Below, piece by piece: positions 5,924-11,485 of a stretch of DNA of 11,485 bases. The stretch is from a virus. Every line of letters begins with the position of its first letter. The stretch's first letter is position 1. The notes beneath the pieces are model-generated. The model saw only the letters and a list, made by a program, of their open reading frames with translations. It ran no database searches and was not told the origin of the DNA. Location: IMG/VR virus record IMGVR_UViG_3300044941_000346, one strand, 5' to 3'. Made by a program: the position numbers and the translations under genes.

Positions 5924-7736
5924 CTTCACGCATCAACCACGCCTCAAGCTCTGTCACCTCGCCAAGCTCCACCTCGGGCGCTGGCTGCGCCACATGCCAC
6001 GTCCTGCCGCGCACTACCCACGCCGTCCTCAGCCCCACACACCGCGCCCCCAGCAGATCGTGCACCGGCGTATCACCGACCATCACCGCCGCGCGCGGAT
6101 CTTCCGCGCAGCCCGTCGCCGACAGCGCGGCCTCGAAGATCGCCGCGTCTGGTTTTGTAGCGCCGATCTCGTCTGAGATAAAGATCGCATCAGGATCAAA
6201 ATGTCGCAGGAGGTCAGCCCGCGCCAGCTTGTCGCGCTGGCTCGCGCTGCCACCGTTGCTCAACAGCGCCAACTTGTAACGTTTGCTCAATCGCTCAAGC
6301 ATCGCTTGAATCGCAGGCTCTGGCACAAGCTCCGCCGCGATGCGGCGCGGTAGCTCGGCCCACACGGCCCGCCACTCGCCCGCCTCCCTGCCGAGCAGCC
6401 CACACAGCGCCTCACACAACACTCGCCGATCCCCATGCCCATGCGCGTCCAGCGCAAACACCCGCGCCAGCGCCTCGTCATCACAGCCCGTCCAGCGCCG
6501 CACCGCCGCGCAGAACGCCGCGTCGCGGTCGATCAACGTGTTGTCGAGATCAAACAGCACCGCCCGTATCTTTGGCCACGCCTCCAGCCTGCCCCAGCCC
6601 GCAAAGCCCCGCACCTCCGCCGTATAGCTGTCCTCCCCACGATCATACACATTGGGCAGCAGATCCCCAAACGCATTGACCTCGATGATACGCGGCGCAT
6701 CCAGCGCATCCGCCGGGAACAACACGTCCGCCCCCAGATAATACGCGCCCGGAAACGCCTGCGCTGCCTGCCTACACAATACCTCAAGCGCGCTCCACCC
6801 CACATCTCCCACCAGCGCCCGCACCTGATCCAGCTCCCCCCGCGCGTTCCCCAGATGAAGGTTTGTCATGGGATGCTCTGAGGCCCGCACCACCACCTGA
6901 CGCGCCTCACCGCCGATCACCACCACCCGCAGATCAAAGTTTTTGTCCTGACCATCATGTCGGATCATCGCCTTTGATGACCACTTCTCCACCACCGCAC
7001 CCTCCGCCAATAAATAATTTAGCAGTAGCGCGATCTGTCGAATGTCGTGATAACGTCGCGGTCGAAGTGAATTGTAAATGGAGAACCTGCCGTCGCTGTC
7101 CTCCACCAGATGGGCCGTGGTGGTCAACATCGCGCGCGGGCCGCTGACGCGCAGAGCCGCAACGCCCGACGCAGACGAGCTGCCGCGCAGCTTCACAAAC
7201 ACCCGATCCCAGCCCGCCTCGTCCATCCGCGCCCGCAGCGCCTCCCACGATCCCACGCCCTCCAGCGATGGCATCCTCGGCACACCATGCGCGTCCAATC
7301 TGCGGTGCGTCGCCAGCTTGTCAAACATCACCGCGATCTCGTCCGGGCGGCTCATGATGCGCCCCGGCGCACCTTCAAGTATCACTTGAAGGTCGCGCAA
7401 GACCGCCTGCCAGCCCGCGCGCAGCTGCCCCGGCGCCAAAAGCCTGCCGTGCTCAAGCGGCGCACAGAGCGCCTCCTGCGCGGTAAGCGTCGGCTCGTCC
7501 AGCTCCTCCGCACCGCGCGCCAGCAGCCTGCGCGTCACGCGCGCATCCTCGCCCGGCGACTCCAGCCGCAGGATCGTGTCGTCGTCCAGCAGATCTGGCA
7601 GCACCACGCGCCCCTCCAACACGTCGAGCCACGCCACAAAGCGCGCCGCGCTGTGGCCGCTGCGCATCAGCGCGTCCTGCACGTACGCTGTGCGGCGATG
7701 CCCCGCGTTGCCCACCACCACCCACCGCCTCGTCAT
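5913..7736 (-). CDS. Fusion protein: N-terminal RimK/GshB-like ATP-grasp ligase (about nt 6573-7736) plus C-terminal HAD-IA-type phosphatase (about nt 5916-6572); the N-terminal part is possibly the STM4014-family equivalent
   Basis: ATP-grasp motifs: VFVKLRGSSSASGVAAL (K..GS..G.GV), FDLRVVVIGGE, HPMTNLHLGNARGE, RIIEVNAFGDL. HAD motifs: I AVLFDLDNTLID (DxDxT), II LALLSNG, III GATKPD, IV VMVGDTPVHDLLGA. The ATG at 7736-7734 (MTRRWVVVGNAG...) forms an ATGA overlap with the upstream TGA (7735-7733). The track start is GTG at 7745. Confidence 0.85.
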   Translation of the reverse strand: MTRRWVVVGNAGHRRTAYVQDALMRSGHSAARFVAWLDVLEGRVVLPDLLDDDTILRLESPGEDARVTRRLLARGAEELDEPTLTAQEALCAPLEHGRLLAPGQLRAGWQAVLRDLQVILEGAPGRIMSRPDEIAVMFDKLATHRRLDAHGVPRMPSLEGVGSWEALRARMDEAGWDRVFVKLRGSSSASGVAALRVSGPRAMLTTTAHLVEDSDGRFSIYNSLRPRRYHDIRQIALLLNYLLAEGAVVEKWSSKAMIRHDGQDKNFDLRVVVIGGEARQVVVRASEHPMTNLHLGNARGELDQVRALVGDVGWSALEVLCRQAAQAFPGAYYLGADVLFPADALDAPRIIEVNAFGDLLPNVYDRGEDSYTAEVRGFAGWGRLEAWPKIRAVLFDLDNTLIDRDAAFCAAVRRWTGCDDEALARVFALDAHGHGDRRVLCEALCGLLGREAGEWRAVWAELPRRIAAELVPEPAIQAMLERLSKRYKLALLSNGGSASQRDKLARADLLRHFDPDAIFISDEIGATKPDAAIFEAALSATGCAEDPRAAVMVGDTPVHDLLGARCVGLRTAWVVRGRTWHVAQPAPEVELGEVTELEAWLMREDER

Positions 7737-9001
7737 GCCATCCACCAGGGGTCATCCGGGTCGAGCGCCGCTGCGCACCAGCGCGCCCCCACCTCATCAA
7801 GCTCCGCGCGCACCGCCGCGCTGGCCGCAATCGCAGCCAGCGTCACCTCATTAAAGCCGTTCCCATTTAACACCACCCGCGCGCTCGGATGCAGCCGCGG
7901 CGACGTGATCAGCGCCAGCGCCCCCGCGTCCGTGAGCTGCGTCGCCGACAGATTTAGTAGGCGCAACTGCCCCACCCACGGCAGCGCCAGCAGCCGCTCT
8001 ACGGCTTGATCCGTCAACGGGTTGTCGCTCAGATCCAGCGCGGTCAGCCCCCAGCTGTGCCCTTCTGTGAGTGGCTCGAACAGCGTGTCCAGCGTCGCAT
8101 CGTCGATCCTGCACTCGCCCAGCTCCAGCGTCTTCAAGCGACCCAGCACCGCAGGCGCCTCGCGCAGCACATGCGCCCCTCCGTGCAAGAATAGATTGCC
8201 GCGCAGCGACAGGTGCCGCAGCGCCTCCCAGCCCGACAACGCGAAGATGTGCATACACGGCAGCCCGTGGTGCCCCTCACAGTGCTCCAGCCAGAGCGAC
8301 TCCAGCACGGGCGCCGCGTCCGCAACCTCGACCAGCGCGTCCAACCCCGCGCTGCCGCCCACGCCGAGCGGGTTGCGCGACAGATCCAGGTGCCGCAGCC
8401 CCCGCACCAGCGGTGCACGCGCCAGCCGCACCAGCGGCAGCGCCATCGGCTGCGCGTTATTGCTCGTTGCACGTGTCACGTTCGCCAGGCTCAACCGCTC
8501 AAGCGGCGGCTTATCTGGCTCATCTTGCAGCCAGGCGTCCAGCGCGCCCAACACATCATTGTCCGACAGGTCAAGCGCGCGGAGCCGGTTGTGCTCGGCC
8601 AGCCGCTCCATCAGCGGCCCCACCATATGCTCGTGCAGGCTCGTCCCAGCCAGATCGAGCTGCGTGATGTGCCCCAGCGCCGGATGCTCGATCAGGCGCT
8701 GCATCTTGTCCCGATCCGTCAGCTGCACATGCACTCGCAGCCGCCTGGCGAGCGCCAGCGCGGGCAGCTTGTCGCCCGATAGCACCCGCGCAATCCAGCG
8801 CCGAGGCGCCACCCGCCAGCTATCCTCCCAGCCGCGCAGCTGCGCCTCACAATACGGCAGCGCCTGCTCGGCCAACGATCCATCGTCTGGCCACCGCTCC
8901 AGGAGCGCGCACAGCGCCCCCCACGTCTGCGGCTCAGGCGCGCGCTGCAGTAGGCTGCGCAGCTCCCCGAACAACACCTCGCGCTCGCTCAAGGCTCCCA
9001 C
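7733..9001 (-). CDS. Leucine-rich-repeat protein (RNI/ribonuclease-inhibitor-type LRRs, ~10 repeats) with a shared ~85 aa N-terminal module; LRR paralogue P5
   Basis: LRR units include LRALDLSDNDV, LRHLDLSRNPLGVGG, LKTLELGECRIDDATLDTL, LTALDLSDNPLTDQAVERL and LRLLNLSATQLTDAGALAL. The N-terminal module FGELRSLLQRAPEPQTWGALCALL...ALPYCEAQLRGWEDSWRVAPRRWI is shared with 8989-9855 and with the decayed copies. The C-terminal tail is LDPDDPWWMA. The start is either GTG 9001 (13-nt overlap) or TTG 8992 (a TTGA overlap with the upstream stop). Confidence 0.8.
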   Translation of the reverse strand: MGALSEREVLFGELRSLLQRAPEPQTWGALCALLERWPDDGSLAEQALPYCEAQLRGWEDSWRVAPRRWIARVLSGDKLPALALARRLRVHVQLTDRDKMQRLIEHPALGHITQLDLAGTSLHEHMVGPLMERLAEHNRLRALDLSDNDVLGALDAWLQDEPDKPPLERLSLANVTRATSNNAQPMALPLVRLARAPLVRGLRHLDLSRNPLGVGGSAGLDALVEVADAAPVLESLWLEHCEGHHGLPCMHIFALSGWEALRHLSLRGNLFLHGGAHVLREAPAVLGRLKTLELGECRIDDATLDTLFEPLTEGHSWGLTALDLSDNPLTDQAVERLLALPWVGQLRLLNLSATQLTDAGALALITSPRLHPSARVVLNGNGFNEVTLAAIAASAAVRAELDEVGARWCAAALDPDDPWWMA

Positions 9002-10807: not shown

Positions 10808-11485
10808 ACCAGTAGTCATCGTCATCGTCGGCGCGGCGCTGCCCGCCGTTACGCACCGTCACGCCCGTCGCGCGGAGCTGGTCGATCAGCTCCTCATCGC
10901 CGATGAAGTTATTGGTGATATCAATCGACTTGAGCTTGCCGATCTTTGGATTCCTCGCTAGCGCACCGGCTCCTGTATTCGACATGATCCCCTTCGACAG
11001 ATCCAGCTCCTCCAGGAAGTCCAGCACAGGCGCATCAAACAGCGCCTCCGCCAGCTCGTCCGCCAGCTCGCTGTTCACCAGCCCCAGCCGCTTGAGCTTG
11101 GGGAACGGATACCGCATCTCCGGATACGCTGTCCCCACCAGCAGCGGCTTCACATCCTCCACCGTCACGTCCGCCCCGTACTCGCTGCTCCCCGTCCAGA
11201 TCTCCAGATGCTGCAGGTTCGGCAGCTTCGCGCTCACGATCTGGCGCACCGTGTGGCCGCTCACGCCGCCTGTCTCCACGATCAGCGTCTCCAGCGTCGG
11301 GTGGCTCAGGCCCGTGAACCCCAGCCCGTTGCCGCCGCGCGCCTTGAAGTGCTTGAGCTTGGGGAAGGCGTTGATCACCGCGCCCAGATCAAACTGCTCG
11401 ATCCACGACACCTCGCTCTCCTCATAGGAGATGTCGCCCACAAACAGCGCCTCCAAGGAGGTGAGCTTGGGCGCCGCCGCCCGCA
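10788..11485 (-). CDS. Leucine-rich-repeat protein P1, 5'-truncated by the window edge; resembles what I recall as the STM4015 family protein
   Basis: The frame stays open to nt 11485 (...RAAAPKLTSLEALFVGDISYEESEVSWI...); the track 'M' at 11456 is an internal TTG. LRR-like units include LKHFKARGGNGL, LETLIVETGGVSG, LQHLEIWTGSSEYG, LKRLGLVNSELADELAEAL, LEELDLSKGIMSNTGAGALA and LKSIDITNNFIGDEEL. The acidic/aromatic tail is RRADDDDDYWYVEVGE; the stop is TGA at 10790-10788. Confidence 0.8.
   Translation of the reverse strand, partial: RAAAPKLTSLEALFVGDISYEESEVSWIEQFDLGAVINAFPKLKHFKARGGNGLGFTGLSHPTLETLIVETGGVSGHTVRQIVSAKLPNLQHLEIWTGSSEYGADVTVEDVKPLLVGTAYPEMRYPFPKLKRLGLVNSELADELAEALFDAPVLDFLEELDLSKGIMSNTGAGALARNPKIGKLKSIDITNNFIGDEELIDQLRATGVTVRNGGQRRADDDDDYWYVEVGE

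Follow-up and report, generated by a model that had tools for sequence, protein, structure and literature searches.

Organization of the locus

We analysed a stretch of viral DNA of 11,485 nucleotides (nt; IMG/VR record IMGVR_UViG_3300044941_000346, hereafter the window) that contains a STM4015-STM4014-STM4013-STM4012-STM4011 cassette, and our subject is the C-terminal tails of the leucine-rich-repeat (LRR) proteins, P1 to P5, that are encoded beside its predicted ATP-grasp ligase, STM4014. An earlier note on this DNA had described an acidic and aromatic tail in every LRR paralogue, perhaps a docking peptide or a ligase substrate, and the sequences and coordinates that it gave for P1, P3, P4 and P5 are exactly right. 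The window genes are all on the minus strand and are tightly packed, with most stop codons overlapping or abutting the next start; STM4014, STM4013, STM4012 and STM4011 all lie downstream of P1 on the same strand and score above their family cut-offs. The window is part of a 19.5 kb Joint Genome Institute (JGI) metagenome contig, on which the cassette is preceded by Omp85 and SUI1 genes. The features are listed below; FGELRS-type denotes LRR proteins with a particular N-terminal domain, for which we used a hidden Markov model (HMM), and the pieces are read from open reading frames (ORFs).

10788..11485 (-): P1, LRR protein of the STM4015 family whose N-terminal part lies beyond the window end, stop codon at 10788-10790; matches NF038076 end to end
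10791..10829 (-): P1 tail, DDDDDYWYVEVGE; the family-wide C-terminal motif, in which W replaces R at -6, with terminal Glu
10640..10825 (-): P2, remnant of an FGELRS-type paralogue, from frame translation, tblastn and the N-terminal-domain HMM (E 2e-4)
9852..10573 (-): P3, an FGELRS-type LRR gene broken across three or more reading frames; last ORF piece at 9852-10130
9855-9881 (-): P3 tail, LEEPYDDDL, read from the last ORF piece
8989..9855 (-): P4, FGELRS-type LRR protein of 288 residues; N-terminal-domain HMM E 7e-21
8992-9021 (-): P4 tail, VWVDDERWEP, read from the ORF
7733..9001 (-): P5, FGELRS-type LRR protein of 419-422 residues, JGI start TTG at 8992; N-terminal-domain HMM E 3e-38
7736-7765 (-): P5 tail, LDPDDPWWMA, read from the ORF
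5913..7736 (-): STM4014 ATP-grasp ligase (~6573-7736) fused to a HAD phosphatase domain (~5916-6572); NF038074 at 333 bits, and HAD families
5096..5923 (-): STM4013/SEN3800-family hydrolase of the alkaline-phosphatase/sulfatase superfamily; NF038075 at 406 bits, Pfam Sulfatase and Metalloenzyme
3702..5099 (-): STM4012-family HemN-like radical S-adenosylmethionine (SAM) protein, start from the JGI gene call; NF006067 at 525 bits
2830..3705 (-): STM4011-family radical SAM protein, start from the JGI gene call; NF038073 at 386 bits
131..2611 (-): MVP-shoulder/Band-7 protein of 823-826 residues, a neighbour outside the conserved cassette; Pfam MVP_shoulder at 1.3e-27

The STM4015 tail ends in a near-invariant glutamate

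The full-length form of P1 (P0001, 309 residues, 100% identical) is present on the JGI contig. It matches NF038076 with an E-value of 1.6e-77 and 260.4 bits over profile positions 6-290 of 290, the curated cut-off being 275 bits, and judged on sequence P1 is a divergent STM4015-family member of a distinct clade. To 103 database homologues we added STM4015-type ORFs from 174 genome and metagenome loci, giving 295 non-redundant sequences, and 288 of these relatives, drawn from many phyla, end in Glu. The seven other ends comprise five truncated or fragmentary sequences, one with a three-residue extension past the motif (IAISGYLA) and one Asp. The extension belongs to the first copy of a four-copy STM4015 array that ends IAISGYLA or IAVSEYLA (L024 6886-7908, L041 7363-7905; Herpetosiphon / Chloroflexia); among full-length sequences no other lacks an acidic last residue, and P0038 (VDASD) has Asp there.

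The tail consensus is (D/E)5-6-[Y/W/D]-R-Y-[V/I]-[A/S/E]-V-[G/S/A/T]-E-COOH, and the pattern [YF][VIPCTAYS]x[VLIAH]xE$ is matched by 267 of the 295 relatives. Among the 288 Glu-ended tails, Arg is at -6 in 236, Tyr at -5 in 241 and Val at -2 in 218, and in an alignment of 40 sequences the terminal Glu is among just 13 invariant columns. The end of P1, YWYVEVGE, is the variant typical of its own clade, with W for R; members of this clade accept W, Y, A or L at -6. Conservation of the tail among STM4015 homologues, which the earlier note had left to be checked, is therefore found across phyla for the P1-type motif.

The codons of the tail are free to vary. Terminal Glu is encoded by GAG in 94 sequences and GAA in 87, Tyr by TAT in 80 and TAC in 71, and Arg by five codons; each of the two Val positions uses four codons, and every one of the three stop codons is present. 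Selection on the STM4015 tail thus acts on the protein and not on the DNA. We considered whether a P1-type tail could arise from overlap with the Shine-Dalgarno (SD) sequence or start codon of the following gene, and rejected this explanation: the gap to the next gene ranges from -4 to more than 100 nt, synonymous codons are used freely and every stop codon occurs, and together the gap range and the codon data rule out a ribosome-binding-site origin. Twenty-three loci have 2-6 tandem STM4015 copies, and over 45 tandem paralogue pairs the identity is 0.54 for the body, 0.67 for the last eight residues and 0.78 for the core R/Y/V/E positions, indicating that the tail is better kept than the body. 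The earlier description of a tail that persists while the bodies diverge is thus strikingly apt for the STM4015 family proper, although the four tails of the window are not one motif (see below).

Some longer STM4015 members (P0049, P0051, P0054, P0063, P0066, P0068, P0073, P0097 and P0102) also match WGR (PF05406), BRCT (PF00533) or TIGR02996, and the C-terminal motif is constant in these.

STM4015 is linked to STM4014

At 130 loci there is at least 1.5 kb of sequence downstream of STM4015, and in 119 of them STM4014 follows on the same strand, a nearly obligatory linkage, with a median gap of ~23 nt (range -4 to >100). Where 6 kb either side of STM4014 is covered (85 loci), STM4013, STM4012 and STM4011 are all present in 79, in the same order as in the window. 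In five loci the STM4015-STM4014 pair is retained, together with canonical tails, and no STM4013, STM4012 or STM4011 gene lies within 6 kb. Retention of the pair and the tail without the radical SAM genes ties the tail most closely to the ligase, and suggests that the LRR protein and the ligase can work as a module of their own, or with enzymes encoded elsewhere. The loci with STM4015 copies and STM4014 lacking the other three genes within 6 kb are L005, L006, L030, L063 and L067 (and L173).

This distribution bears on a proposal that the tail Arg-Tyr, and the Glu, are substrates of STM4011 or STM4012 for crosslinking, methylation or cofactor formation, with the LRR body as leader or scaffold and the tandem copies resembling tandem precursors of ribosomally synthesized and post-translationally modified peptides (RiPPs). 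The 79 loci with both radical SAM genes, the 23 with STM4015 arrays directly upstream of the enzymes, and the near-invariance of Tyr at -5 and Arg at -6 would fit such a role. However, the five loci with the pair and a canonical tail have no radical SAM gene within 6 kb, the clade represented in the window tolerates W, Y, A or L at -6, and nothing ties these radical SAM families to protein substrates. Compared with RiPP precursors, the STM4015 candidates are full-size folded proteins for which linkage to radical SAM genes is not obligatory, and multiplicity in tandem is the only shared trait. We regard this proposal as quite improbable as the main explanation, though it is compatible with, and not exclusive of, a role of the tail in ligation; the earlier suggestion that radical SAM enzymes could crosslink the aromatic residues is likewise less favoured, with the tail being kept where no radical SAM gene is nearby.

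The MVP-like gene is not shared with other loci

The earlier note had pointed to the presence in one cluster of a shell-like gene and a RimK-like gene. The second part stands, as the cassette does encode a LysX/RimK-like ATP-grasp enzyme, but the first concerns a neighbour that is probably incidental. The MVP-like protein matches MVP_shoulder, Vault_3 and Band-7, and a bacterial MVP-shoulder protein is unusual in itself. Were the tails to act as cargo-loading peptides, they would dock the LRR proteins inside a shell formed by this protein (131-2611), and it is true that the MVP_shoulder match is solid (1.3e-27) and that in this window the gene comes after the cassette, in the same orientation. 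There is, however, a gap of 219 nt between STM4011 and the MVP-like ORF, while the cassette genes overlap one another. No MVP-like ORF was found in any of the other ~170 STM4015 loci examined, all of which conserve the tail, and in the closest relatives with full cassettes (L086, L167-L172) STM4011 is followed by unrelated genes. A shell seen only here cannot explain a loading peptide that is kept across phyla, and at the level of the family we consider this idea extremely improbable. The likeness to encapsulin cargo-loading peptides and to INT docking in vaults lies in short C-terminal segments, on diverged proteins, with a shell-like gene nearby; the difference is that the STM4015 tail occurs elsewhere with no shell gene, and its motif is tied to a ligase gene.

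STM4014 resembles LysX, ArgX and RimK

A search of the Protein Data Bank with the single STM4014 sequence was uninformative, and we therefore used a profile of 25 homologues. Its best matches are LysX (1uc8, 1uc9, 3vpd), then RimK (5zct, 4iwx); 3vpd is LysX from Thermus thermophilus, although the title in its sequence file reads "Ribosomal protein S6 modification protein". Individual STM4014 members match the Pfam families ATPgrasp_ST, ATPgrasp_YheCD and RimK. We also built AlphaFold2 models with database homologues. The STM4014 model has a mean predicted local distance difference test score (pLDDT) of 93.9, and its top Foldseek matches are ArgX-LysW (3vpb) and LysX/ArgX-LysW-gamma-AAA (5k2m), with DcsG, Ddl, LysX, PsnB and RimK close behind.

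Among ATP-grasp enzymes, LysX/ArgX and RimK are the ones for which ligation to a protein's C-terminal Glu is known. Ligation to amino-group carrier proteins proceeds via the gamma-carboxylate of the C-terminal Glu (PMC9303977), and RimK lengthens ribosomal protein S6 at its C-terminus (PMC10375531). In three organisms LysW ends EDWGE-COOH.

In the window and in its closest relatives P0160 and P0161 (L086 10927-12812, L167 2249-4071) the HAD domain is fused to STM4014; many other loci encode it on its own, in the gene immediately after STM4014, and others lack it. STM4013 appears to carry Thr (RHTPGSF) at the position of the sulfatase Cys/Ser, the residue that is converted to formylglycine in sulfatases, which would favour a phospho-transfer enzyme over a sulfatase that depends on the neighbouring radical SAM protein for its maturation. 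PADLOC gave no meaningful match to a known defence system.

Structure of the LRR protein

The AlphaFold2 model of P0001 has a pLDDT of 92.7, and its fold matches are LRR structures. The nearest solved structure is 2RA8 (Bacteroides fragilis Q64V53; profile E 7e-85, Foldseek TM 0.75 to the P0001 model), a structural-genomics entry with no assigned function that is a genuine member of the STM4015 family. The native C-terminus of 2RA8, DDDYSYPMITE, carries the motif, with LEHHHHHH appended in the construct; it differs from P0001 in having ~70 extra N-terminal residues and, through the tag, in lacking a free terminal carboxylate.

The structures bear on whether the STM4015 tail instead folds onto the LRR body of the same protein, capping or latching it through conserved internal contacts of the terminal carboxylate and the Glu side chain, with conservation reflecting folding or autoinhibition rather than modification. 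In the P0001 model the pLDDT falls from 97-98 to 76-81 across the last 19 residues, the drop coming at the acidic run; these values are not very low, free tails typically being below 50, and the tail may therefore dock on its own protein. The Y-V-x-V alternation is also strand-like, and with 351 of 362 construct residues in the Foldseek entry for the crystallised 2RA8, much of the C-terminal region may be ordered. On the other hand, DSSP assigns no strand to residues 299-309 and 2RA8 folded despite the tag after its native Glu. A cap does not account for chains that end exactly at Glu in ~98% of sequences, and leaves unexplained both the acidic linker of variable length and the tight pairing with a gene for a LysX/RimK-like ligase. 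We consider a purely structural role in cis unlikely, although one to be taken seriously.

A second LRR family: P3, P4 and P5

All four tails noted earlier are enriched over the composition of their own proteins. Shuffling each protein's own residues, we scored the joint probability that the last 10 residues would hold as many acidic and as many aromatic residues as observed, or more, a criterion set after seeing the data, and obtained 6.5e-4 for P1, 2e-5 for P3, 1.1e-3 for P4 and 5.4e-3 for P5. The claim that every LRR paralogue has such a tail nevertheless does not extend to P2, a fifth copy whose ORF ends RLNRHFNT without an acidic-aromatic tail, and is weakened for P3, which is spread over at least three frames and is thus a pseudogene, LEEPYDDDL being only the tail of its last ORF piece.

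P3, P4 and P5 begin with the domain 'FGELRSLLQ..P....W..LC.LL..W', followed by RNase-inhibitor/RanGAP-type repeats. The STM4015 HMM aligns to them over the repeats only (profile positions ~134-290) and ends before the tail. With NF038076, P5 scores 44.7 bits over the repeats only and P4 has no match, and all three fail both the family model and the C-terminal motif. We accordingly rejected the idea that the P3-P5 tails are homologous to that of STM4015: the HMM reaches no further than the repeats, and the tails of P3, P4 and P5 resemble that of P1 in composition only. Since they lack the terminal Glu and R-Y-x-x-V-x-E, the premise that all four tails are one feature with one function fails.

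Among STM4015 loci, the N-terminal-domain HMM has matches only in the window's own clade and none in the ~160 others. Clade members were obtained by exact-protein look-ups; a metagenome scan for closer relatives of the clade returned only sequences with at most 44% identity, none with FGELRS paralogues. Outside the cassette, P4 and P5 share the N-terminal domain and repeats with hundreds of TIGR02996-type / FGELRSLLQ N-domain LRR proteins of Myxococcota and Planctomycetota, but these have ordinary tails, ~3% being acidic-aromatic. We called a tail acidic-aromatic if its last 10 residues hold at least three acidic and at least one aromatic residue, with more acidic than basic residues, and compared the copies by position:

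FGELRS copies between STM4015 and STM4014 (window, L083/L084, L085, L175, L176): acidic-aromatic 7/11, net acidic 10/11; tails EEPYDDDL, DDERWEP, DPDDPWWMA, SYYDDDDWE, DEDYPLEFSSFHDLME, ERYYNNDSWE, EVDSEYDID and DPNDPWWIA, the exceptions being SLNIWLYT and the aromatic-free DEPSEPSSMDDAT
FGELRS copies just upstream of STM4015: acidic-aromatic 0/6; tails RELSLKLP, AQLTSR, HIKDRL, ITRIR and others
Outside homologues: ordinary tails, acidic-aromatic 1/52
Outside representatives with the same N-terminal domain, query excluded: ordinary tails, acidic-aromatic 3/83

The in-between copies differ from the outside homologues with a Fisher p of 4.5e-6, orthologous copies not being independent in this comparison. 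P3-P5 represent a second LRR family that is recruited in one clade, and their acidic-aromatic tails are real and specific to position. The P5 tail is the best kept, as AAA[LMI]DP[DNE]DPWW[MIL]A in four orthologous loci (including L085, L175 and L176) at ~50% body identity. That of P3 is partly conserved, an orthologous C-terminal fragment in L085 ending IIEVDSEYDID, and that of P4 in acidity only, not in sequence (DEPSEPSSMDDAT, GAHEQEPHP). Three of the four in-between copies in L083 end in Glu (DWE, SWE, LME), and none in the window does.

For these tails, though not for the P1-type, translational coupling has to be weighed: the last codons may have to encode the SD sequence of the next gene, and a purine- or GG-rich SD sequence reads as Glu, Arg, Gly or Trp. 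Junctions in the operon do overlap or abut the next gene; the stop codon of P5 overlaps the STM4014 start (ATGA). The P4 codons GAG AGG (E-R) form the SD sequence of P5, 8 nt before its TTG start, and the P5 codons TGG TGG (W-W) are SD-like, 4 nt before the STM4014 ATG, with the DNA conserved in L175 and L176. STM4014 itself ends EAWLMREDER, a tail that is acidic with Trp (p = 0.016). However, SD overlap can explain only one or two residues in each of the P4 and P5 tails, not the runs of Asp (YDDDL, DPDDP, SYYDDDDWE). The products of STM4013, STM4012 and STM4011, which are also coupled, end in unremarkable tails, and the upstream FGELRS copies closely precede STM4015 yet have neutral or basic ones. 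The first of two tandem P5-type copies in L085 also keeps DPNDPWWIA before a 68-nt spacer, a weak point in view of the near-identical C-terminal thirds of the two copies. Coupling is, in our view, distinctly unlikely as the full explanation of the P3-P5 tails. With respect to STM4014, these tails, which lack the acceptor Glu, are more likely to dock on the enzyme or to mimic its substrate, their sequence shaped in part by ribosome-binding sites, than to be acceptors like the P1 tail.

Several further observations concern this paralogue array. About 35 N-terminal residues of P2 are recognisable, with an identical remnant in an independent Logan contig (L002), and the GC fraction is ~0.55 around 10500-11000 as against 0.67-0.71; the P2 remnant and the broken P3 (9852-10825) look like decay of a tandem paralogue array. 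The L085 copies (1012-2238 and 2306-3547; P0105, P0106) are mosaic, with 61% identity overall, near-identical first ~80 and last ~130 residues and strongly diverged central repeats, a pattern suggesting that the repeat surface has been diversified while gene conversion or constraint has acted on the two ends. In the wider clade, an FGELRS-type gene of ~380-393 residues with a neutral or basic tail lies immediately upstream of STM4015 (L083 4303-5472, L086 8783-9961, L167 142-1296, L168 5735-6874, L171 8809-9963, L173 8804-9985). The window has no such upstream copy, the Omp85 and SUI1 genes preceding P1 there (L001).

The STM4015 tail as a candidate ligase target

On our best reading, the near-invariant, Glu-ended STM4015 motif, encoded just upstream of a LysX/RimK-like ligase gene, would be a target of that ligase. 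We propose, tentatively and with slightly less than even confidence, that the P1-type STM4015 tail would be the recognition or acceptor site of the adjacent STM4014 enzyme. Of the two roles offered earlier for the tails, that of ligase substrate is thus favoured for P1 on circumstantial grounds, namely the near-invariant Glu, the gene linkage and the affinity to LysX/ArgX, but not for P3-P5; the other, docking in a shell, fails for want of an MVP-like gene wherever else the tail is conserved.

The conservation of the motif, the gene linkage and the affinities of STM4014 were observed; we infer each of the following chemical steps, by analogy with LysX/ArgX-LysW and RimK-S6. The P1-type tail has the architecture of a flexible acidic run followed by [R/W]-Y-[V/I]-x-V-[G/S]-Glu-COOH. 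This acidic tail would enter the ATP-grasp active site of STM4014, where a carboxylate of the terminal Glu would be activated as an acyl-phosphate and then joined to an amine, either one or more glutamates or another amino compound. Whatever group is attached, or the tail itself, may afterwards be processed by the other enzymes of the cassette, namely the HAD phosphatase, the hydrolase of alkaline-phosphatase type and the two radical SAM proteins.

The closest parallel, which remains an analogy, is LysW with LysX/ArgX in the biosynthesis of lysine, arginine and DADH. LysW shares with STM4015 an acidic stretch followed by an aromatic and a small residue before Glu-COOH, as well as adjacency to an ATP-grasp ligase gene; by both sequence and fold the nearest solved relatives of that ligase are LysX/ArgX, and the STM4015 cassette likewise has downstream enzymes that could act on a tethered group. 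The differences are substantial, however. LysW is a zinc-ribbon protein of 54 residues while STM4015 is an LRR protein of ~300 residues, often in several tandem copies; the downstream enzymes of the cassette (HAD, alkaline-phosphatase-type, two radical SAM) are unrelated to LysZ, LysY, LysJ and LysK; and STM4015 has a longer, hydrophobic stretch separating the aromatic residue from Glu, the exact EDWGE not being shared. RimK and S6 would offer a second parallel, in which a folded protein with an acidic C-terminus ending in Glu is modified by an ATP-grasp enzyme of the RimK family; both by sequence and by fold, STM4014 has RimK structures among its best matches. Here the putative substrate is an LRR protein and not a ribosomal one, the ligase gene is dedicated and adjacent, and the rimK operon holds nothing comparable to the other cassette genes.

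A more elaborate version, which we think unlikely as it stands, would make STM4015 an LRR carrier or scaffold analogous to LysW, with STM4014 adding an amine to the Glu and the two phosphatase-type and two radical SAM enzymes building or remodelling a tethered small molecule or cofactor; alternatively, the activated C-terminus could be joined to a lysine of a target bound by the LRR, in a pupylation-like, receptor-guided manner. The variable central repeats and tandem copies would then give different specificities, and the Glu-less FGELRS tails would compete for docking on the ligase or regulate it.

Several points weigh against the tail being a ligase target. The profile matches of STM4014 with LysX and RimK have modest E-values, between 5e-5 and 7e-3, and Ddl and DcsG are within about two orders of magnitude of the top Foldseek matches, a small margin. 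LysW and S6 are small, and we know of no precedent for an LRR carrier of 300 residues. The intermediate pLDDT of the last 19 residues would also suit docking in cis. P3, P4 and P5, having no terminal Glu, are not directly covered by a ligase explanation, and their SD-like codons at the P4-P5 and P5-STM4014 junctions offer a partial explanation of another kind. Finally, the literature on STM4011-4015, 2RA8 and TIGR02996 gave no functional account.

Implications

Our analysis corrects the first reading of this locus in two respects: the MVP-like gene is probably an incidental neighbour, and of the four tails three come from a different, clade-restricted family. The STM4011-STM4015 cassette is widespread, being present in Salmonella, Bacteroides, Streptomyces, cyanobacteria, Deinococcus, Planctomycetota, Myxococcota and others, and it has curated family names and a crystal structure (2RA8) with no function in the literature, for which the tail motif provides a handle. 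With an LRR component whose tail ends in a near-invariant Glu and which is paired to a LysX/RimK-like ligase, there is one defined residue to look at. If the proposal is true, the carrier and acceptor chemistry of C-terminal Glu, as in LysW and S6, would extend to large repeat proteins, and there would be a hint of how the two radical SAM enzymes find their substrate.

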